Assembly (NCBI GenBank): GCA_963749445.1
Contig: CAVVMJ010000010.1
Coordinates: 43,913 to 107,912 of the forward strand
Source of the DNA: an uncultured bacterium
GTDB taxonomy: Bacteria > Patescibacteriota > Doudnabacteria > UBA920
Reading direction: 5' to 3'
Length of the DNA: 64,000 nucleotides
Positions 28,985 through 39,900 of the stretch are shown in pieces (positions within the stretch are counted from its first letter, which is position 1; the number at the start of each line of letters is the position of its first letter). A program made the translations under genes and the position numbers. Below the pieces are notes generated by a model. That model was not told where the DNA came from. It saw only the letters and a program-made list of their open reading frames with translations, and searched no databases.

Positions 28985-30210
28985 TTAAATCTCCAAATAA
29001 TTATTCTTGCATACTTCCGCAAACTTGACGGCGCTAAAGCGCACCCTGCGACGCAGCAAATCTTCGCGGTCAATTTCCACCAGCCCGAACCGCGGCCAAA
29101 AACCTTCTTCCCATTCAAAATTATCGGTAAGCGACCAGTACAGGTAGCCGCGCACGTCCGCATTTTTTTGGATGGCGCGGTGCACATAGAACAAATGGTC
29201 CTTAATGAATTTTTCCCGCTTTTCGTCTTTGCGATCCGCGATGCCGTTTTCCAAAATATAAATCGGCTTGCCGTAGCCTTTAATCCCAAGCAGTACGCGC
29301 TCAATGCCTTCGGGATGTATGCCCCAGCCGCGGTCGGTTTCGTTATGCTGGCTGTGGCTGTGCTTGCGCAGGCCGAACAGGCCGAGGTGGTGGTGGAAAT
29401 AATAATTCACGCCAATGTAATCGCACGTCTTGATGGTGCGGCGTAAAATATAATCGTTAACTACATAATCCGCCAAGCCCGCCGCCAAGCCGCCCAAAAA
29501 TCCGTAAGGCTGCAAGTCAGACAAATTAAACGCCAAACTTACCGGCTGACGCAGATGCTGCTGGATGTATTCGGCCAATAAATTGTGGGACCTGATTAAA
29601 TTATCCACCACTCTCCAAGCCGTGCGGAAACTTTTAACCTGCGGCGGATGCACGCCCAGCCAATAACTTTGTCCAGCGTACAGGCCAGGCTCGTTAATTG
29701 TCACCCAAAAATCCACGTACTGGCTCAACCGCCTGGCGGTATGCCGCGCATAGTGCAAAAAATCGCTGATGTTTTCTTTTTTGGTAAATCCCCCTTTTTC
29801 ATAAACCACACCGGGCTGGTATAATGGTGCAAAGTCAAAAATACTTTCAGCCCGTGATATTTGGCGGACTGCAAAATTTTTTCGTAATGGTCCAAAGCCT
29901 TTTCGTCAAACACGCCTTCTTTGGGCTCTATGCGCGACCATTCCACGCCAAACCGCGTGGCGTTTTGGTTAAGATGCTCAGCCAAAGCGAAATCTTCATC
30001 GTACCGGTTATAAAAATCGCAGGCAATACCACTCTGGAATTCGGCCGGATTTTTACCCGCTTTCCTGAGCGCGTCTTCCCGCCGCGGCGACCGTTCCCAA
30101 ACCCACCAATCCGCGTTGCTGTTACCGCCCTCGGTCTGGTAAGCGCCGCTGGCCGCCCCCCACAAAAAATCTTTGGGAAAGATAAATTTTTGTATCTGTT
30201 TCATTGCCAA
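28985..30210 (-). CDS. GH1 beta-glucosidase, split by a frameshift near 29790-29800 (C5/T5 runs)
   Basis: N-terminal FLWGAASGAYQTEGG. Acid/base TINEP and nucleophile YILENG in the downstream ORF. The junction lies between NEP and YILENG, inside the catalytic barrel. Confidence 0.75.
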
Positions 30211-30620: not shown

Positions 30621-31663
30621 TGGTTTAATGGTAAATTCTAGTGCTTGAAACCGGCTAAAACTTCCTCGATTAACCGCCAGCGCCTGTCGCGTTTCAGACC
30701 GCTATGGATGCCAATCAGTTGTTTAAGATATTTAAAACTGCCGTCTAAAGAATTCGTAGTATTGGGAATATTTAAACCGGTATATCGTTGGTAAGTAAAC
30801 AGGTAAGGCGCGTTGGTTTTCAAACTCCGATAAGCAGACCTAATTCGCTTGTGGGTGTAAAACCACTTTTTAGGATTAAAGGGATTAACGGTTCGTTCTT
30901 TTAAAAAGTCTCCCCATTTTTCATGCCAGGCATCCAGCAACAACAGCAACATGTTTTCAGTTAATTCAGTTAAAGCCAAGGCAATCATCCGCAGTTCTTT
31001 TCCCGCTTCCAGCTTCGGCCGTTTGGTCAAATACCTGGTAACGATGGCCATTTGGTGGAACTGGCAGACTTGTACCGGAATGTCGGAAAACACTTCTCTG
31101 ACGCCCTTTTTACCGTCTAAGACCACTGCTTCAAAGGTGTAGCCCAATTCTTCCAGCAGTTGTCTGGCTTCCCGATACACATCAGCCGTTTCAGTTTTAA
31201 CCTCCGTCCAGTACAGGTTCTGTTTAAGGTCAAAGGATCTAAAAACCAACACCCCGTAACCCCGACCCCAGAATGTGCAATCAGCGATGGCAACTACAGG
31301 TTGCGGATAAAGGCGAAATGACTTTGTAGGAGCTTTATCCAGCTGCTGCCGAATCCACTTTTCACTCCGCTGATATTTTTTAACCAGCTGCTTAACTGTT
31401 TGTTTGCCCCAGATGTATTGCCGCCAGAGGGCGCGTTGAAGTTTCTGTTTACGCCGTTTATTCTCAAAATTCTTTCCGCAATTCTTGCACTGGTAACGCT
31501 GGAGCCCTAACTGTTTCCCTTTCTTAATAATTGCCGAAGAACGGCATCTTGGGCACTTTTTTTACAAGCCATACATAATCAAAGTTAATTATTTATCTTA
31601 AGTATGGCACAAACGCCGAAATCTAAGCACTAATATTTACCATTAAGCCAAATGTGTTAACAT
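30621..31663 (-). mobile_element. IS1595-family (ISXO2-like) insertion sequence next to tRNA-Glu
   Basis: Imperfect terminal inverted repeats TTAATGGTAAATTCTAGTGCTT (30626-30647) and, on the other strand, TTAATGGTAAATATTAGTGCTT (31636-31657). One transposase gene inside. Confidence 0.7.
30638..31572 (-). CDS. IS1595-family transposase (N-terminal zinc ribbon plus DDE domain), frameshifted in a homopolymer at 31557-31563
   Basis: With one extra A the N-terminus reads MACKKKCPRCRSSAIIKKGKQLGLQRYQCKNCGKNF (the Zn_Tnp_IS1595 pattern) and continues into the 204-aa DDE ORF. As sequenced there is no ATG in that frame. Confidence 0.7.
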
Positions 31664-32084
31664 ACTGCACACCTACCCGCCAGGCGGGCGGATCGCTGGT
31701 TTTCTATAAACCGGACAAAGGCTATTTAAGCAAACTTTTAAGGACAAAACGAAGAGAAACCGCCTTTTAAGTTGCCATGAATAGCAGGCCTGCCTGCCGA
31801 AAAAACCGGAGGACAAGTTTCGTCTTGCCGCGTTATCGGCTGCCGTATCGCCTTCAGGTCCGCGGCGAAACAGCACGCTGAGCGCGACATTGCCATGAGG
31901 GCAGCTGATTGGGCTTTTCATCTGCGGCCCGCAGTTGCCCTCGTCGGCAAAATTTCAATTTGAGATCGTTGATCAGCAGAAACCTATCCGGTGAACATCA
32001 TTGGGGATACCCGGAACAGGATGCCGATTTTGGGCTTTGCCCAAACAAGCAGAACACGACTGTTTGGTTTCAACGATTCTCCGG

Positions 32085-32128
32085 CCCGGCAATTGGTTTC
32101 AAGCACCAATTGCCGGGTGCGTTTTTTT
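32085..32128 (+). terminator. rho-independent terminator on the plus strand with no upstream plus-strand CDS
   Basis: CCCGGCAATTGG - 9-nt loop - CCAATTGCCGGG followed by TTTTTTT. Confidence 0.6.
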
Positions 32129-32368
32129 ATACCCGCGGCCAAAGCACACCCCTGAATTCGTTGTTCACGATTAGCGGAACGCCGCGCAAACTTTGCACGC
32201 GCGCGGAAATTTCACTCACCGGGCATCGGTGGGCGCGGTTTGATCCGCAGGAGCAATGCGCGCATAAGCCGGAAAGTTGGCTCACAATGTTCAATTTTTG
32301 CTTTTCAAGTTCGCTCATAAATTAGTGAGTAGTTAGTAGCGGGTAGTCAGTAGCCAAACAGAATGTGC

Positions 32369-32722
32369 TCAATTTTTGTTTTGAATAAGCTTGTTAAGCA
32401 TTTTCATAACCTCCTCAAGCAAGCTGTCAACTTTTGAAAAATCCAAGCCTTTGCCGAAAGGCAATCTTTTTGCTATTTCTATTTGGGTTTCCAATTCGGC
32501 TCCGGAAGCAAAAGCAATCGACAAAAAATGATAAAACTCATTATCCCCGAATCTACGCCTGCCCTCGGCAATATTTGACGGAATAGAAACTGAGCAACGG
32601 CGAGACTGCGAAACTAAACCATACAACTCATTCGGTGGATATCTTTCCGTAAGCTTATATACTTCAACGACTAAATCCATTGACTTGCGCCAAACAATTA
32701 AATTTTTGTAATCCGCGTACAT
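32369..32722 (-). CDS. four-helix-bundle protein (TIGR02436; 23S rRNA intervening-sequence protein family)
   Basis: SIPSNIAEGRRRF...EFYHFLSIAFASGAELETQIEIAKRL signature. Confidence 0.75.
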   Translation of the reverse strand: MYADYKNLIVWRKSMDLVVEVYKLTERYPPNELYGLVSQSRRCSVSIPSNIAEGRRRFGDNEFYHFLSIAFASGAELETQIEIAKRLPFGKGLDFSKVDSLLEEVMKMLNKLIQNKN

Positions 32723-32765
32723 ACTTCGTCATACTGGCTACTTACTACTAACTACCATCTACTTA

Positions 32766-33380
32766 CTACTCAAGGTTTCTAATGACTCCAACCACCTTCC
32801 CCTGCACGCTCCATTCTTCCTTGGGATAAATGTTCTTATAGTCCGGATTCTCGGCTTTTAAGTAGGCGCGGTTTTTTACGTAGACCAGCCGTTTAACCGT
32901 GGCTTCGTCGTGCAGCAGCGCCACCACGATTTCGTTATTTTTGGCTTCCTTGGTCGGCCGCACGATTACCAAATCGCCCTCAAAAATTCCGGCGTTTATC
33001 ATGCTGCCTCCGCGCACCTTAAGCAAGAACACATCGCGCCGGCCTTTAATTAAGCTGGAAGGCAAATTAATCCATTCTTCAATTTGCTCTTCGGCCAAAG
33101 TCGGCACGCCGGCCTGGATGGCGCCCAGTAAAGGCACTCTGATTAGCCCTTTTTGCAAACTTTCGCCCAAAGTCTTTAGCACTTCAATGCCGCGCGCCTT
33201 GCCGGAAATCCTGATAAAACCTTCGCTTTCCAAAGCGTTCAGCAATTTAGCCACCCCGTTTTTGGATTTGACCTTAAGGTAAGTGGCCATTTCCGAAATG
33301 GACGGCGGCAAATTGTATTCCCGCACCTGCTTAATGATGAATTGGAGCAGTTCTTTTTGGCGCTGTGTGATTTTGTCCAT
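32766..33380 (-). CDS. lexA: LexA repressor
   Basis: N-terminal winged HTH; cleavage site region AIQAG (Ala-Gly); S24 catalytic Ser in GGSMINAGI and Lys in TVKRL. Confidence 0.85.
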   Translation of the reverse strand: MDKITQRQKELLQFIIKQVREYNLPPSISEMATYLKVKSKNGVAKLLNALESEGFIRISGKARGIEVLKTLGESLQKGLIRVPLLGAIQAGVPTLAEEQIEEWINLPSSLIKGRRDVFLLKVRGGSMINAGIFEGDLVIVRPTKEAKNNEIVVALLHDEATVKRLVYVKNRAYLKAENPDYKNIYPKEEWSVQGKVVGVIRNLE

Positions 33381-33490
33381 AGGTTTAAAATTAATGATAT
33401 TTAAATAGTATACCTTCGTTCACCGTCAGTCAACAGCATTAAAATACCGGCCTTTCGTCTGCCCGATTAAAGTTATCCACAAGCAATTAT

Positions 33491-33578
33491 AGCTAATAGC
33501 GCTTAGCGTTTAGCGATTAGCCTAACAAAAACCAGCCCTTTATGGCTGGCTAAACGCTAAATGCTAAACGCTAAATGC
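33491..33578. repeat. large imperfect palindrome built from TAGCGTTTAGC units around a central hairpin
   Basis: AGCGCTTAGCGTTTAGCGATTAGCC ... CCAGCCctttaTGGCTGG ... CTAAACGCTAAATGCTAAACGCTAAATGCT. Confidence 0.7.
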
Positions 33579-33815
33579 TCATTTCGTATTCAGCAAAAAC
33601 TTAATAAACTCCACCACCCCCTGCCAAATATTCTGCAGCATTGGCACCGATGTCGGCAGTAAAATCAGCAGGGCAATAATAAAAATAAAATCCTTTTTTA
33701 CCACCTTAAAAATGGAGTAGACCAAAAATATGGCCAAGGCGATGGAAATGACCGGCCGCGTGTTGACCGGAAAGTTGGCAAGAAACTGCAGGTAAAGGGA
33801 CTGAATTTGGTCCAT
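33579..33815 (-). CDS. small membrane protein (hypothetical) immediately upstream of lexA
   Basis: Start chosen at MDQIQSLYLQ. The longer track ORF translates the upstream repeat array. Two TM segments. Confidence 0.4.
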   Translation of the reverse strand: MDQIQSLYLQFLANFPVNTRPVISIALAIFLVYSIFKVVKKDFIFIIALLILLPTSVPMLQNIWQGVVEFIKFLLNTK

Positions 33816-33820
33816 AGAAT

Positions 33821-33920
33821 AATTGACAAGATTTAAAAGATTTAAATGATTGACAAGATTTTCAACTGGCAATCTTGCTCAATCATGTCAATCTTGTCAA
33901 TCTTGTCAATCTTGTCAATA
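33821..33920. promoter_or_regulatory. array of about six ATTGACAAGAT motifs (two forward, four reverse at 9-bp spacing) upstream of the small membrane gene
   Basis: AATTGACAAGATTT at 33821 and 33850. ATCTTGTCAAT at 33888, 33897 and 33906, with a partial fourth reverse copy ending near 33918. Each contains a TTGACA hexamer. Confidence 0.5.
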
Positions 33921-34929: not shown

Positions 34930-36960
34930 ATGGAAGAATTAGAAAGCCAAATCGCCAAAATCCAACTAGGCAATTTCCGGCATACCGCCAGTTTCGTTTA
35001 CGCGATGGCCGAAAAAGCCGGCGGCAGCCCGGCCGAGCTTTTTGCCGTGGCCGAATTGCCCCTGCTCAACCCGGCGGCGCAGGAGTCGTGCGAAAGGATC
35101 TGCCTGGCCATAGCCGGCGCCCTAAGGCGGATTTACAAAAAACCCATAACAGCAGGCAGTTTTGAAACAGCCATTGCCCAAATCAACGACGACCTGGGCG
35201 CAGCAGCTTCTTTGGGCCAAACCCATTGGATCAATAAGCTCAACTGCGTCATCGGCGTCAAAAATGAAAACTCCTTTACCGTCGCTTCCTGCGGCAAGGT
35301 GGCGGCTTACCTGCTGCGGGGCGGCGAGTTCACGGACATTGCCTGTTCCCCGGACCAAAGCCATCCGCTCAAAACTTTTGAAAATTACGCCACGGGCAAA
35401 ATCCGTTTGGGCGATTTGCTGATTTTATCCACCACCCAACTGCTGAATTACGTGGCTTTGGACAGATTAAAAAATATTCTTATGGGGGCGGAATTTTTGC
35501 CCGCAACCCAAACCATCGTCAATTTACTTAAAGACAATGCCGGCCCGGAAGTCGCCTTTGGCGCGATTTTTAACCTCCAGGTACAACCCGGGCAAACCAA
35601 GGACGAAGAAATTGATTTGGAAAGTTACGCGGCGGAGACCCAAACCCCACGCGCTCCGATTTTTGCCAAAGCCTGGGATTACGTAAAATCCATGCTGGCT
35701 TTGGACAAAAAAAAGCGCCAGCCGCAAACCTCCCTGCCCGGCATCAAGTCTACCAGCCGGCTTGCCGGCTTCAAAACCGGCGCCAGATCGGCCTGGAGCA
35801 AAAGCAAAAGTTTTTGGACGCTGTTCGGCCGCGGCACTCAAGCCGGCCGGCGGGCGTTGGATCCCGAAAACTTTAAAACCTACAGCCCGGAAAAAAAGTT
35901 TTTTCTGGTTTCCCTTGGCGTTTTGTTAATGACTTTGGCGGTGTGTTTGACCGTGGCGGTGCACGTCAGGCAAACCCGGCAAAACGACGCGAATACCGCT
36001 GCCCGCTTGAAACAAACGCAAACCCTGCTGGGCAGCGCGCAGACGTCCTTTTTGTACAACGACCAAAACGGCGCCGGTAATTTTTTGGCCCAGGCCGAAC
36101 AGGCTATGCCGCCGACCGGCCAAATCAGCGGCGTTAACAAAACTTTATACCAAACGGTCGGCGGGCAATTGGCGGACCTGCGGCAAAAAATCCAAAAAGA
36201 AACCCAAGCCCAGGTAACAAATCTCGGCGCGCTGGCTTCAGGAAACTCTTTGATTAAATTGCCCAACCTTTTGGCCGTCCAGAGCAAAGGCAGCATCATC
36301 AGCTACAGCCAAACCACGGGAAAAATTGAGGAAGGCGTTTTAAAATCAAACGACAATATTTTGGATGAAGTCTATTTCGGCAATAATTTGGCGGCCATTT
36401 ACAATGGCGGCGCTTTGCGGCTGTGGGATTTTACGACCGGCAATTTAACAGCGCCGTTTACGCAAAACGTGCCGGCCCAAAGCGACTTTACGGGGCTGGC
36501 CGTTTATCCCACCAACAGCCGCGTTTACACTATCAACACCAAAACCGGCCAAATTGTGAGTTTCGCGGTTTTCGCCAATAATTTTATCAAACCGGTAATT
36601 TCCGTTTCCGCTGATGTCCTCAAAAATGCCCAGGATTTGGCTGTTGACGGCGCAATCTATGTACTGGCCAACAAAAGCGTCAGCAAATTCCAAAACGGCC
36701 AGCCGGCAACGTTCAGCATGCCGGTTTTAACCACGCCTTTGAGCGGCAAAGGCAAAATTTACACGGAAAAAGGCTGGCAAAATTTGTATATTTTGGATGT
36801 TGGCAACAGCCGCATAGTAATTTTGGACAAAAAAGGCAATTTGATTTCCGTTTTGCAAAGCAACCAATTTACCAAATTGATAGATTTTTCCGTGGATGAA
36901 AAAAATAAGGTGATGTACGTGCTCAACGATTCCAGTTTGCTCAAAGTGACGCTACCATAA
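34930..36960 (+). CDS. large membrane protein: cytoplasmic N-terminal domain, one TM, C-terminal beta-propeller-like repeat domain
   Basis: 676 aa; TM FFLVSLGVLLMTLAVCLTVAV near residue 320; C-terminal repeated YVLAN/LYILDVGNSRIVILD motifs (NHL/propeller-like). Confidence 0.4.
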   Translation: MEELESQIAKIQLGNFRHTASFVYAMAEKAGGSPAELFAVAELPLLNPAAQESCERICLAIAGALRRIYKKPITAGSFETAIAQINDDLGAAASLGQTHWINKLNCVIGVKNENSFTVASCGKVAAYLLRGGEFTDIACSPDQSHPLKTFENYATGKIRLGDLLILSTTQLLNYVALDRLKNILMGAEFLPATQTIVNLLKDNAGPEVAFGAIFNLQVQPGQTKDEEIDLESYAAETQTPRAPIFAKAWDYVKSMLALDKKKRQPQTSLPGIKSTSRLAGFKTGARSAWSKSKSFWTLFGRGTQAGRRALDPENFKTYSPEKKFFLVSLGVLLMTLAVCLTVAVHVRQTRQNDANTAARLKQTQTLLGSAQTSFLYNDQNGAGNFLAQAEQAMPPTGQISGVNKTLYQTVGGQLADLRQKIQKETQAQVTNLGALASGNSLIKLPNLLAVQSKGSIISYSQTTGKIEEGVLKSNDNILDEVYFGNNLAAIYNGGALRLWDFTTGNLTAPFTQNVPAQSDFTGLAVYPTNSRVYTINTKTGQIVSFAVFANNFIKPVISVSADVLKNAQDLAVDGAIYVLANKSVSKFQNGQPATFSMPVLTTPLSGKGKIYTEKGWQNLYILDVGNSRIVILDKKGNLISVLQSNQFTKLIDFSVDEKNKVMYVLNDSSLLKVTLP

Positions 36961-37056: not shown

Positions 37057-38421
37057 TCAGAATGACGCCCTTGATAAATAATCTCCGATAATTTGCCTGG
37101 TTTCGTCCAGGTTTTTTGTTTGCATTAGCTTGGCGCGTAGCTCGTGCGCGCCGGCAAAACCGGAACAATAAGCTTTAAAATGCTTGCGCATAATCGCGAA
37201 TGATTTATTTTTGCCAAGTTCCCGGTCAAACAGTTCCGCGTGTTCCAGCATGACGCGGAGGCGTTCTTTTATGTCCGTCTGGTAATTATCATCGCGAAAT
37301 ACCCAAGGGTGCCCAAACGCTCCCCTGCCGATCATTACGCCGTCGCAACCCGTCTCCGCGACGCGCGCCAGCCCTTCCTCGCGCGACTTAATGTCGCCAT
37401 TCCCGATAATCAAAGTCTTAGCCCTTAGCCCTAAAACCTTAGCCCTGATATTCACCGCCTCGGCAATCTTGTCCCAATGCGCCGGAACTTTGGACATTTC
37501 CTGTTTGGTACGGCCGTGCAAAATCAGCGCCGCGATGTCCATCGCGAGCAAATTTTCCACCCATTTTTCCATCTCCGATGTTTTGCTGTAGCCGATGCGG
37601 GTTTTGACTGATATCGGCACCAAAACCACCTCCCCCCTCGGCTTCGCTCGGGGTACTCCTCCTTGAAAAGGAGGAGAGCTCCGCACTTTATCCGATAACG
37701 GGGACAATTGCGGAGCCTCCCCTCCTGTTAAGGAGGGGTGTCCCGCGGAGCGGGACGGGGTGGTTGGAGATTGCACGGATTGTCCCGACAGCCACCCTTC
37801 TTTTGTCGCGCTGATGATTTCCCAGGCGAGTTTCGGTTCGCGGATAAGCGCCGCGCAAGTCCCGCCCGCAATTTCTTTTTGCTGCGGACAGCCCATATTA
37901 ATGTCAATGCCGTCAAATTTTAAATCGCGGATGATTCGCGCGGCCTCTTTAAATTTTTCCGGGTCGCGCCCCCACAACTGCGCCACAATCGGTCTCTGCG
38001 CTTCGCTGTATTTTAAATCGATGGATAAATTTTTCCTGCCTTCCGGATGCGTCAACCCGTCCACGTTTATAAATTCCGTGAACGTAACAAAATTATTACC
38101 ACCTCCCCCGCCTTCGGCGGGTACTCCTCCTATGAGAGGAGGAGAGCTCCGCAAAATATTCGAGGATAACCGCGGAGCGCTCCCCTCCTTTTTTGAGGCC
38201 TTGATGAAGGCAAAGGAGGGGTGGCTCGCGCAGCGAGACGGGGTGGTACTTCCACTTTTAACTTTTAATTTTCCACTTTTAACTTGCCCGCCATAGCGGG
38301 CCACCATCTCCCGAAACGCAAAGTCAGTGACTTGCTCCATCGGAGCCAAGCAAAATATCGGTTTCTTTAAATTATTCCAAAAATTATTCATTGCGCAAGC
38401 AAACGACCTCTCTGTCGCCAA
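37057..38421 (-). CDS. tRNA-dihydrouridine synthase (Dus family; specific paralog not determined) carrying three in-frame repeat-element insertions
   Basis: CLAPMEQVTDFAFREMV, DINMGCPQQKEIAGGTCAAL and IGNGDI motifs. At 454 aa versus about 330 expected. Inserts correspond to family F1 copies at 38098-38240 and 37625-37766 and a short TTAGCCCT repeat at 37416-37451. Confidence 0.8.
   Translation of the reverse strand: MATERSFACAMNNFWNNLKKPIFCLAPMEQVTDFAFREMVARYGGQVKSGKLKVKSGSTTPSRCASHPSFAFIKASKKEGSAPRLSSNILRSSPPLIGGVPAEGGGGGNNFVTFTEFINVDGLTHPEGRKNLSIDLKYSEAQRPIVAQLWGRDPEKFKEAARIIRDLKFDGIDINMGCPQQKEIAGGTCAALIREPKLAWEIISATKEGWLSGQSVQSPTTPSRSAGHPSLTGGEAPQLSPLSDKVRSSPPFQGGVPRAKPRGEVVLVPISVKTRIGYSKTSEMEKWVENLLAMDIAALILHGRTKQEMSKVPAHWDKIAEAVNIRAKVLGLRAKTLIIGNGDIKSREEGLARVAETGCDGVMIGRGAFGHPWVFRDDNYQTDIKERLRVMLEHAELFDRELGKNKSFAIMRKHFKAYCSGFAGAHELRAKLMQTKNLDETRQIIGDYLSRASF
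37625..37766. repeat. palindromic repeat family F1, copy A (module order 1 then 2), inside dus
   Basis: CCACCTCCCCCC..GGGGTACTCCTCCttgaaaaGGAGGAGAGCTCCGC ... GCGGAGCCTCCCCTCCtgttaaGGAGGGGTG..GGGACGGGGTGG. Confidence 0.85.
38098..38285. repeat. palindromic repeat family F1, copy B, plus adjacent tandem TTCCACTTTTAACTT x2, inside dus
   Basis: Same module structure. Module 2 is nearly identical to the copies at 62499 and 63405. Confidence 0.85.
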
Positions 38422-38768
38422 AAACGATATTATTCTAAAAATTTTGGCGACATCTCCCCTCGCCAGGGGAGAATAATAATGAAGAATCTATCGCGAAATC
38501 CGTCACCTCTTCCATCGGCGCGAGGCAAAATATCGGTTTTTTTAGTTGTTGCCAAAAGTTGACAAACATATATTTATAACATAGCTGCCATCCCGAGGAG
38601 TGCAGCCGACGAGGGATCTTTCACATAGTTTAAATCAAAAACCGCGCTGATGCAATCGGTGCGGTTTTTGAACGTTTGATGATAATCGATGATTATTTAG
38701 GGGATCCTTCGGCCGCCTGTATAATTCTGATGACGGCCTCGGGATGAATTTGAAATAACAATGCTGTG

Positions 38769-39757: not shown

Positions 39758-39900
39758 AATTTATTAGTAGTTAGCAGATAGTATTTAGCAGTTAGGGCTA
39801 GATCGACCTCGTAGCCGATAAATATCCTTTTAATAAAAAGACTCGGGCTTACCCGAGTGAATAAGTGTAGTGTGCACATTTATGGGCAACTAATGATGGC
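39758..39900 (-). promoter_or_regulatory. rplJ 5' leader (candidate L10-leader autoregulatory structure)
   Basis: A 140-nt untranslated region with hairpin potential (GGGCTTACCCGAG..) upstream of rplJ. Call is by position only. Confidence 0.3.

Follow-up and report, generated by a model that had tools for sequence, protein, structure and literature searches.

In a 64-kb stretch of DNA from an uncultured bacterium of the Doudnabacteria lineage (contig CAVVMJ010000010.1; the whole stretch is called the window here, and all coordinates are window positions), we identified a compact genetic element at positions 32323–32768. In this element, a gene of the four-helix-bundle protein family PF05635/TIGR02436 is enclosed by inverted arms made of periodic 7-nt units. 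Comparison of related loci shows that the element behaves as a single inserted unit, placed exactly at the junction between lexA and a small downstream gene, and that cassettes of this kind appear to have been gained, replaced, decayed and lost at this junction among close relatives. The same anatomy surrounds most of the PF05635 genes compared from the Patescibacteria, or candidate phyla radiation (CPR), and recurs in other phyla. We regard the element as a hairpin cassette of the type known from the intervening sequences (IVSs) of 23S rRNA, that is, an inserted unit residing in an mRNA operon, whose arms would form an RNA stem and thereby a substrate for RNase III. We assign a probability of roughly 60% to this reading as a whole.

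The cassette lies on the minus strand between two co-oriented genes, lexA (32766–33380, with LexA_DNA_bind and Peptidase_S24 domains) upstream and a gene for a 63-aa protein (32127–32318, conserved after lexA) downstream. Read along the gene strand, the 5′ arm (32735–32768) consists of five TAGNNNN units and the 3′ arm (32323–32356) of five NNNNCTA units complementary to them. Each arm contains exactly five TAG or CTA triplets, all at an exact 7-nt spacing, with the TAG triplets of the 5′ arm at 32768, 32761, 32754, 32747 and 32740 in descending order. A repeat search returned the arms as inverted repeats of 34 nt with 79% complementarity and 378 nt between them, and it also found the pairing in alternative registers offset by 7 nt. 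A preliminary description of this DNA had already bracketed the gene with inverted repeats. Both of its repeat strings are present, but the left one lies at 32323–32355 instead of 32306–32340, 17 nt away, and the right one at 32737–32770 instead of 32733–32770. The outermost TAG of the 5′ arm (32766–32768) is the stop codon of lexA, and only 4 nt separate the 3′ arm from the ATG of the small gene. Inside the arms, the cargo gene starts 15 nt past the last TAG unit and stops 12 nt short of the 3′ arm.

The arms are unusual both in composition and in predicted stability. With at most one mismatch, GTAGTNAGTAG has six matches in the two arms and two elsewhere in the 64 kb, compared with an expected count of 0.64, and none of 100 shuffles reached eight matches. 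Joined by a GAAA loop, the arms fold with −39.3 kcal/mol (z = −7.2; 0 of 200 shuffles equally stable), and the long-range stem is present in both the minimum-free-energy and the centroid fold of the full 491-nt transcript. The GC content of the cassette is 39.2%, compared with 49.1% for lexA. The locus is not an assembly artefact, since the identical arrangement was found in a separate assembly (Logan ERR10755942, locus L001; L numbers denote surveyed loci). At a threshold as permissive as E ≤ 1, no Rfam family matched the cassette or its surroundings (31200–33700), and the Rfam search of the window returned three tRNAs only and no rRNA, so that the cassette is not inside an rRNA gene.

The cargo gene (32369–32722, minus strand) encodes 117 aa. 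The profile search confirmed the earlier assignment to the four-helix-bundle proteins of the 23S IVS type, with matches to PF05635 over the full profile (E 2e-34, 118.4 bits, cut-off 33.8) and to TIGR02436 (E 3e-33, 114.3 bits, cut-off 24); it matched no other family, and no HUH/Y1 transposase. In the Protein Data Bank (PDB), the protein matched XCC0516 from Xanthomonas campestris (2gsc) with E 4e-23 and 44–46% identity. The AlphaFold model consists of four long helices with a predicted local distance difference test (pLDDT) score of 93.1, and Foldseek aligned it with template-modelling (TM) scores of 0.85 to 2gsc and 0.80 to 2rld (BT_0352). Both PDB entries contain five chains, and by analogy the window protein might assemble into a homopentameric ring. 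The homologues compared are mildly basic (median pI 9.1). The residues R42, S46, N50 and E53 form a motif within RRCSVSIPSNIAEG, in which S46, N50 and E53 are invariant and R42 nearly so across 36 homologues; PMC3936711 gives the family motif as GxxRxxxSxxxNxxE.

The evidence for insertion comes from a survey of the lexA junction, for which a LexA scan of metagenome contigs yielded 80 loci; the junction states described here are those of relatives with LexA 58–92% identical to that of the window. The 63-aa open reading frame (ORF), whose product begins MSELEKQKLNIV, carries a CxxCxC...C stretch and matches no Pfam or NCBIfam family, has its place behind lexA in some 60 related loci and, where no cassette intervenes, generally lies within 1–30 nt of it. 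In relatives with an empty site, with LexA 68–85% identical to the window's, it begins only 1–20 nt past the lexA stop codon: 1 nt in the tightest form, TAAtATG (L109, L156), and 4–20 nt in L130, L131, L106, L138, L095, L096, L084, L086 and L127. Such spacing would be close enough for translational coupling of the two genes. At various other loci, the junction spans 24–195 nt and holds assorted repeats and remnants, and where it reaches 422–496 nt, a PF05635 gene lies inside. By identity to the window protein, these genes form four groups, each with its own distinct arms: 75–86%, together with a decayed copy at 67% (L141); 51% (L111, L112); 40–41% (L087, L088); and 38% (L122, L124), with arm units TAAGAAT. 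At filled junctions, lexA mostly ends in a TAG that keeps phase with the array, and in the shortest empty sites it ends in TAA.

Several of these loci have preserved traces of turnover. The cassette gene is interrupted by a nonsense codon in L141 and truncated in L098, and L122, L124 and L092 have retained, beside the ATG of the small gene, an outer 3′ arm from an older cassette of the TAGC type. Orthologous cassettes have conserved the innermost inverted repeat, TAGCCAAAC / GTTTGGCTA. Other cargos occupy the same junction as well. In L107 there is a GIY-YIG gene (PF01541, E 1e-17) with inverted repeats of its own, and L090, L092, L113 and L123 carry a gene for a protein of about 125 aa (MNYKGTIIEESL...AWYADFKNK...GIPEHQVDFSPE; no Pfam or NCBIfam match), which is preceded by C-rich or GTCCTAT-type periodic repeats of 7–8 nt and is a pseudogene in L110. 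In three loci with 97–98% identical LexA, compared with a view to recent replacement, the identity of the four-helix-bundle proteins is 71–87%, and the small gene has diverged to the same degree. A junction that is empty, filled, decayed or taken by another cargo among relatives argues for insertion with turnover. The preliminary description had proposed a small mobile or excisable IVS-type cassette and had pointed to empty alleles in relatives as a way of recognising it. Both the empty and filled sites and the flanks of the family bear the proposal out, with movement as such implied by presence and absence among the loci.

The second line of evidence is that the arms belong to the family and not to this locus alone. 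Whether other family members have the same flanks had also been raised in the preliminary description, and we addressed it with homologues from other genomes. The loci of the 80 closest homologues, from many Patescibacteria lineages, were found by a genome scan with alignment of close homologues, and they provided 81 copies with full flanks. Taking an array as at least three TAG units at 7–8-nt spacing no more than 150 nt upstream, we found TAG arrays upstream of 68 of the 81 copies and CTA arrays downstream of 49, the latter figure being too low, since the arm is often overlapped by the end of the ORF. Arrays of the reversed types were seen in two copies each, and background windows of 150 nt gave 22/2906 (0.8%) and 35/2906. 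The arm unit consists of an invariant 3-nt core and a variable spacer of 4–5 nt, and the units themselves differ by locus (TAGCTTG, TAGGCAT, TAGTGAG, TAGGAAT and others). The distance from TAG to TAG was 7 nt in 145 cases, 8 nt in 71, 9 nt in 11 and 6 nt in none. Five units were found in 35/81 and 37/81 copies for the two arms and four units in 25/81 and 19/81, with larger numbers rarer, giving a median arm span of 31 nt. The two arms of a locus complement each other better than arms drawn from different loci (Mann–Whitney p 1e-26, with an alignment-based score), and the complementarity of the flanks is above the 95th percentile of shuffles in 90% of the CPR loci.

The arms of the CPR cassettes are also positioned precisely with respect to the neighbouring genes. 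A co-oriented upstream ORF ends at the array in 58/65 cases, its stop codon being the first TAG in 24, and a co-oriented downstream ORF starts 0–16 nt past the last CTA in 50/65, mostly at 3–5 nt. Reading inward, stop codons occur in all three frames in 59/65 5′ arms (sense) and 57/65 3′ arms (antisense), as opposed to 19–20/65 reading outward. The GC content of the gene is lower than that of its flanks in 79/81 loci. A Shine–Dalgarno-like motif is present in only 11% of background ORFs of these loci, and the comparison for loss of such motifs before downstream genes is thus uninformative. Most surveyed copies lie between co-oriented housekeeping genes, which differs from the earlier description of the family as a neighbour of mobile elements. 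Judged from these sequence comparisons, a gene within inverted arms of four to five periodic units represents the normal state of the PF05635 family in CPR.

Beyond CPR, the sample was small, comprising 32 records from a tblastn search of plasmids, 19 of which were read, and five loci at a single Xanthomonadaceae site. Inverted arms of 7–8-nt units surround the gene in 17 of the 19 plasmid loci, from four non-CPR phyla. The unit is TAGCTGT in Calothrix, AGGTTTA in Riemerella and GGGCAGGA in Gemmatirosa, and other cyanobacterial units are AGGTGAC, GGCAGAA, AGTCAGG, GTAGGGA, GGGAACA, GGGTGTA and GGAGATA. The 5′ arm is the G/purine-rich strand in every non-CPR case, and some cyanobacterial arms extend to eight or more than ten units (L172, L163, L165). 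Many plasmid cassettes are flanked by co-oriented genes, and their 3′ arm adjoins the ATG of the following one. Some are found within CRISPR-Cas operons of cyanobacterial plasmids, between cas6 and cas4 (L163, L165) or cmr2 and cmr3 (L178). The PF05635 family has been reported in cas loci (PMC3936711), and heptad cassettes inside cas operons are probably the reason for its listing as cas-associated. One locus, L180 from Azospirillum lipoferum, is a classical IVS, with the cassette embedded in a 23S rRNA gene (Rfam LSU, 907 bits) and bounded by five heptads of the type CAGAGGA/CGGAGGA on one side and the complementary units on the other. The folding of the repeats into an IVS-like stem, as envisaged in the preliminary description, is therefore matched both by the stability of the window arms and by a genuine 23S IVS with the same heptad arms.

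The Xanthomonadaceae site connects this anatomy with a crystallised family member. Using the sequence of XCC0516 as given in the PDB alignment, we located homologues in Xanthomonas and Stenotrophomonas (L181–L185), all of which sit between accB and accC. GGGAATC-type heptads begin 5 nt past the accB stop codon, each arm comprises about four heptads, and the C-rich 3′ arm of GATTCCC type runs directly into the ATG of accC and leaves no room for a Shine–Dalgarno sequence. The accBC genes are taken to be essential. Altogether, the comparison indicates that the anatomy recurs in Cyanobacteriota, Bacteroidota, Gemmatimonadota, Alphaproteobacteria and Xanthomonadaceae, and in at least six bacterial phyla overall.

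Arms of the same type occur without a gene. In the window, positions 33487–33577 (minus strand) contain a TAG-heptad arm, a terminator-like hairpin (33530–33551) and a CTA-heptad arm, which fold together with −44.9 kcal/mol (z −5.4). This gene-less hairpin directly follows the stop codon of ORF 33579–33872, about 105 nt upstream of lexA, and both of its arms are present in read-through transcripts only. Such a terminator inside heptad arms precedes lexA in 6 of the 44 related loci compared, where the unit sequences differ. In 531 kb of CPR loci, 70 pairs of TAG and CTA arrays with at least four units each were found, 60 around a PF05635 gene and 10 gene-less, in addition to about 25 lone arrays away from any PF05635 copy. 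The window also contains a lone array (39765–39795, minus strand) of five CTA units, which ends 7 nt before the start of rplJ (39757) and for which no complementary partner arm was found upstream.

A promoter-like site upstream of lexA (33405–33433, minus strand; TTGACT-17-TACTAT, by consensus match only) is the probable promoter of a transcript covering lexA, the cassette and the small gene. The promoter scan detected no convincing promoter belonging to the cassette, and the terminator scan detected no terminator-like site at either junction of the cassette with the host genes; between these two genes, it gave a single site, a weak stem of 6 bp within the four-helix-bundle ORF. With a promoter-like site before lexA and no terminators at the junctions, the three genes should share a transcript. 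In this transcript, the arms would pair to an imperfect stem of about 34 bp from which the cassette would be looped out, with the base of the stem flanked by the lexA stop codon and the downstream start codon. By analogy with rRNA IVSs, such a stem is a likely substrate of RNase III; the rnc signature motif, marking the gene of this enzyme, was not found within the window. In CPR, the TAG core would further supply stop codons in all three frames against translation entering from either side. The stem and the stops together might render the insertion harmless to the host operon, so that it would be tolerated even in accBC, in cas operons and in rRNA. If insertion is harmless to the operon, a gene of no proven benefit could persist. 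The leftover outer arms suggest that cassettes were exchanged by recombination inside pre-existing heptad hairpins.

Several observations weigh against this reading. The fold of the whole 491-nt transcript is only slightly more stable than expected (z = −1.7), the exceptional stability being confined to the arms, which are themselves just 79% complementary. Mismatches in 72 arm pairs are mostly transversions (311) and include 84 sense-strand G·U against 77 A·C; without an excess of G·U, nothing indicates selection on an RNA stem rather than common descent at the DNA level. A plain stem leaves unexplained why the 5′ arm is so consistently the G/purine-rich strand (68 versus 2 in CPR, and all non-CPR cases) and why the units have a 7-nt period even in the rRNA IVS, where stop codons are irrelevant. 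Several cyanobacterial arm types lack stop codons, so that a role in stopping all frames could be at most a refinement in CPR, and the abutment of stop and start codons is partly due to insertion into a very short spacer. By reading of the window and of the syntenic and empty loci, we found no target-site duplication at the borders, and the DNA identity profile of the three loci with near-identical LexA has no sharp break there. The GC content of the gene follows that of the host in CPR (r 0.78; GC slope at third codon positions 0.82), which implies that the majority of copies have resided in their genomes for a long time. The search of viral contigs returned no relatives.

The arms might instead act at the DNA level, as the ends of a non-autonomous element or as hairpin or cruciform sites for a recombinase acting in trans or for homologous recombination, and the RNA stem would then be a by-product. 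We consider this unlikely. Presence and absence, replacement and leftover outer arms at one junction would all fit such a process, as would the hairpins built from such units but lacking a gene (one in the window and 10 across the 531 kb of CPR loci), the arm mismatches without G·U bias and the retention of the innermost repeat TAGCCAAAC / GTTTGGCTA across orthologous cassettes. However, no recombinase, transposase or integrase was found inside or adjoining the cassettes compared, no target-site duplication was seen, and the nearby gene of the IS256 insertion sequence (IS) family is a fragment beyond a terminator. The amelioration of GC content points to slow turnover, and co-orientation with the flanking genes is not required at the DNA level, though later selection could yield it.

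Alternatively, the arms might be protein-binding arrays in which a pentameric PF05635 ring contacts one heptad core per subunit (UAG in CPR and the window; GGGA or CAGG elsewhere) in single-stranded RNA or DNA. The balance between binding and stem formation would then control expression, processing or spread of the cassette. The number of units per arm peaks sharply at five (35/81 and 37/81), followed by four, and each unit combines an invariant 3-nt core with a variable spacer of 4–5 nt, which would suit such contacts, as would the five chains of 2gsc and 2rld and the mildly basic character of the proteins (median pI 9.1). The fold also resembles that of the protein Avd of diversity-generating retroelements (DGRs), which is part of an RNA–protein complex in 8ub7, and the strict strand asymmetry of the arms suits single-strand recognition better than a symmetric stem. 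On the other hand, four to five heptads also add up to about 30 bp, as long as the stems of known IVSs, some cyanobacterial arms have eight or more than ten units (L172, L163, L165), and proteins of about 45% identity are flanked by quite different units. We regard direct recognition of the arms as unlikely on present evidence. Protein binding and DNA recombination remain non-exclusive alternatives.

The possibility that the cassette is not an insertion at all, but an old gene of the lexA operon that was lost in some lineages, with the repeats being simple sequence repeats (SSRs) produced by slippage and without any role, is disfavoured, and we hold it to be very improbable. Heptamer repeats are a common class of intergenic SSRs, often ending before start codons (PMC4679880, PMC4692102), the GC content of the cassette follows the host, and its borders show no sharp break in identity, all of which would be expected in this case. 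Yet four PF05635 subfamilies (38–86% identical) share the junction with LexA proteins 75–89% identical to that of the window, unrelated cargos occupy the same place, and the same architecture exists at accB/accC, cas6/cas4, cmr2/cmr3 and 23S rRNA, in six phyla. Slippage would yield direct repeats and not complementary inverted arms, nor would it account for an array orientation of 68 to 2.

That the gene encodes the DGR accessory protein Avd is essentially refuted at this locus: the model is similar in fold to Avd (TM 0.72–0.79 to 4dwl and 8ub7), and the DGR literature reportedly uses PF05635 as the Pfam family for Avd, but the identity is 13% as opposed to 44–46% to XCC0516, a scan of 15 out of the nearby ORFs of at least 50 aa (23.9–42.4 kb) found no reverse transcriptase, and 26–39 kb contains no pair of template and variable repeats, so that the locus is not a DGR.

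Compared with known systems, the element is closest to the ORF-bearing IVSs of 23S rRNA in Leptospira, Coxiella and Azospirillum. These share with it the PF05635 or 'S23p' gene, a length of about 430–450 nt, terminal inverted repeats forming a stem of about 28–35 bp, a GC content below that of the host and the occasional decay of the ORF. The Azospirillum IVS L180 shares even the arms of five heptads. In Coxiella, experiments have demonstrated that RNase III excises the ORF-bearing IVS at a 28-bp terminal stem, and excision by RNase III is known for the IVSs of Coxiella, Leptospira and Salmonella (PMC4990558). Unlike these IVSs, for which such excision is established, the window cassette would be processed by analogy only, lies between two protein genes of one operon with no rRNA, and uses its outer unit also as the upstream stop codon. 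The window element is thus an IVS-type element in an mRNA operon, the IVS family itself being already known. The resemblance to XCC0516 (a pentamer from structural genomics; 44–46% identity, TM 0.85) extends to the hairpin cassettes of the XCC0516 homologues, although their arms are GGGAATC rather than TAGNNNN, without a stop-codon core, and their host operon is accBC.

The arms also resemble the heptamer SSRs of bacterial genomes (TAACTGA, GGGAATC and the short tandemly repeated repetitive sequences, STRR), which are likewise tandem 7-nt intergenic units oriented with respect to start or stop codons. TAACTGA heptamers in Beggiatoaceae, cyanobacteria and Bacteroidetes end 1 nt before start codons and contain stops in all frames (PMC4679880). 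Heptamer SSRs, including GGGGAYT/STRR of Nostoc, lie mostly between co-oriented genes, and some overlap the upstream stop codon (PMC4679880, PMC4692102). The GGGAATC repeats of Xanthomonas are enriched, form about 70 convergent pairs and are described as being of unknown function (PMC4692102); the accB/accC arms consist of exactly this unit. Unlike the window cassette, the heptamer SSRs presented in PMC4679880 and PMC4692102 are mostly gene-less, and a term search of these two papers returned no mention of PF05635 genes. A full-text search, with subscription journals outside it, returned no publication in which PF05635 genes are connected with periodic repeats at their flanks. As far as searched, the family-wide architecture with heptad arms and its tie to heptamer repeats is undescribed.

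Other systems are similar in part. The repetitive extragenic palindromic (REP) sequences and bacterial interspersed mosaic elements (BIMEs) of proteobacteria, together with the REP-associated tyrosine transposases (RAYTs), form the so-called REPINs, in which short palindromes are scattered at intercistronic or 3′ positions and the RAYT gene is flanked by inverted copies. Inverted copies of a unit on both sides of a gene, with gene-less hairpins elsewhere (33487–33577 in the window, and the CPR loci), are common to both systems; however, RAYT is an HUH/Y1 transposase, whereas PF05635 proteins have no known catalytic activity, and the units here are tandem heptads and not one palindrome. The trp RNA-binding attenuation protein (TRAP) of Bacillus is a ring of 11 subunits binding 11 (G/U)AG triplets spaced by 5–6 nt. 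A ring-shaped homo-oligomer and UAG or GAG triplets with short variable spacers would be the likeness, a resemblance only, since the fold is unrelated and TRAP is an 11-mer with 11 triplets. Avd has the same fold and Pfam family and is a pentameric helical bundle acting on nucleic acid; the window protein differs in its 13% identity, in the absence of a reverse transcriptase (among the scanned ORFs) or of template and variable repeats (in 26–39 kb), and in its hairpin, as Avd genes are not described as hairpin-wrapped. The inverted arms are reminiscent of ISs and miniature inverted-repeat transposable elements, from which the window cassette differs in having no visible target-site duplication and no transposase inside.

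The surrounding DNA contains several features of its own. The preliminary description had placed the cassette adjacent to an IS1595 element. The transposase in question (30638–31252; NF048019, 228 bits, model positions 104–300 of 304) is a fragment of an IS256-family Zn-variant enzyme, lies 1.07 kb away past the small gene and a terminator, and was rejected as a partner of the cassette, from which a gene and a strong terminator separate it. Its main ORF lacks the first ~100 residues, and the short ORFs 31117–31293 and 31294–31467 may represent a frameshifted N-terminus. In the following ~650 nt (31470–32126), we found neither a convincing ORF nor, in a search that began at 31200, any Rfam match at E ≤ 1; this segment ends at a strong terminator-like hairpin with a 14-bp stem and a T run (32084–32118, plus strand). 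Farther away, a glycoside hydrolase family 1 gene is split into the ORFs 28985–29809 and 29725–30210 (minus strand), which suggests a frameshift or a pseudogene, and ORF 34930–36960 (676 aa) matches no Pfam or NCBIfam family. The dihydrouridine synthase (Dus) ORF 37057–38421 encodes 454 aa, with the best Pfam stretch at residues 265–444. It contains a direct repeat in two copies (37651–37695 and 38119–38163) holding a CTCCTCC...GGAGGAG hairpin, and a second direct repeat has one copy in the ORF (38317–38385) and the other just outside (38492–38560).

Our findings place the rRNA IVS as one case of a commoner object, a gene within inverted arrays of four to five units at cistron junctions. To our knowledge, no function has been assigned to the ORF of the 23S rRNA IVS since 1993. 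Two PF05635 family members have been crystallised as 'unknown', and the family recurs unexplained in CRISPR and other operons. The cassette architecture explains why genes annotated as 'four helix bundle protein' interrupt conserved operons, and it warns against calling them members of these operons. It also ties the PF05635 family to unexplained bacterial heptamer repeats, as the GGGAATC repeats form the arms of XCC0516's own gene, and the culturable Xanthomonas accB-XCC0516-accC locus offers a tractable system. A wider proposal, which we put forward tentatively and consider improbable, is that PF05635 proteins and short-period, mostly 7-nt, arrays constitute one phylum-spanning system, in which a pentamer would read about five heptads single-stranded, the cassette would insulate itself, and heptamer repeats would be its gene-less relatives or footprints. 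If true, the repeats of Nostoc, Xanthomonas, Beggiatoaceae, Bacteroidota and CPR would all be covered by a cassette able to live in rRNA, in essential operons and in CRISPR operons, and one system would account for both the 30-year-old IVS ORF and the excess of heptamer repeats in bacterial genomes.

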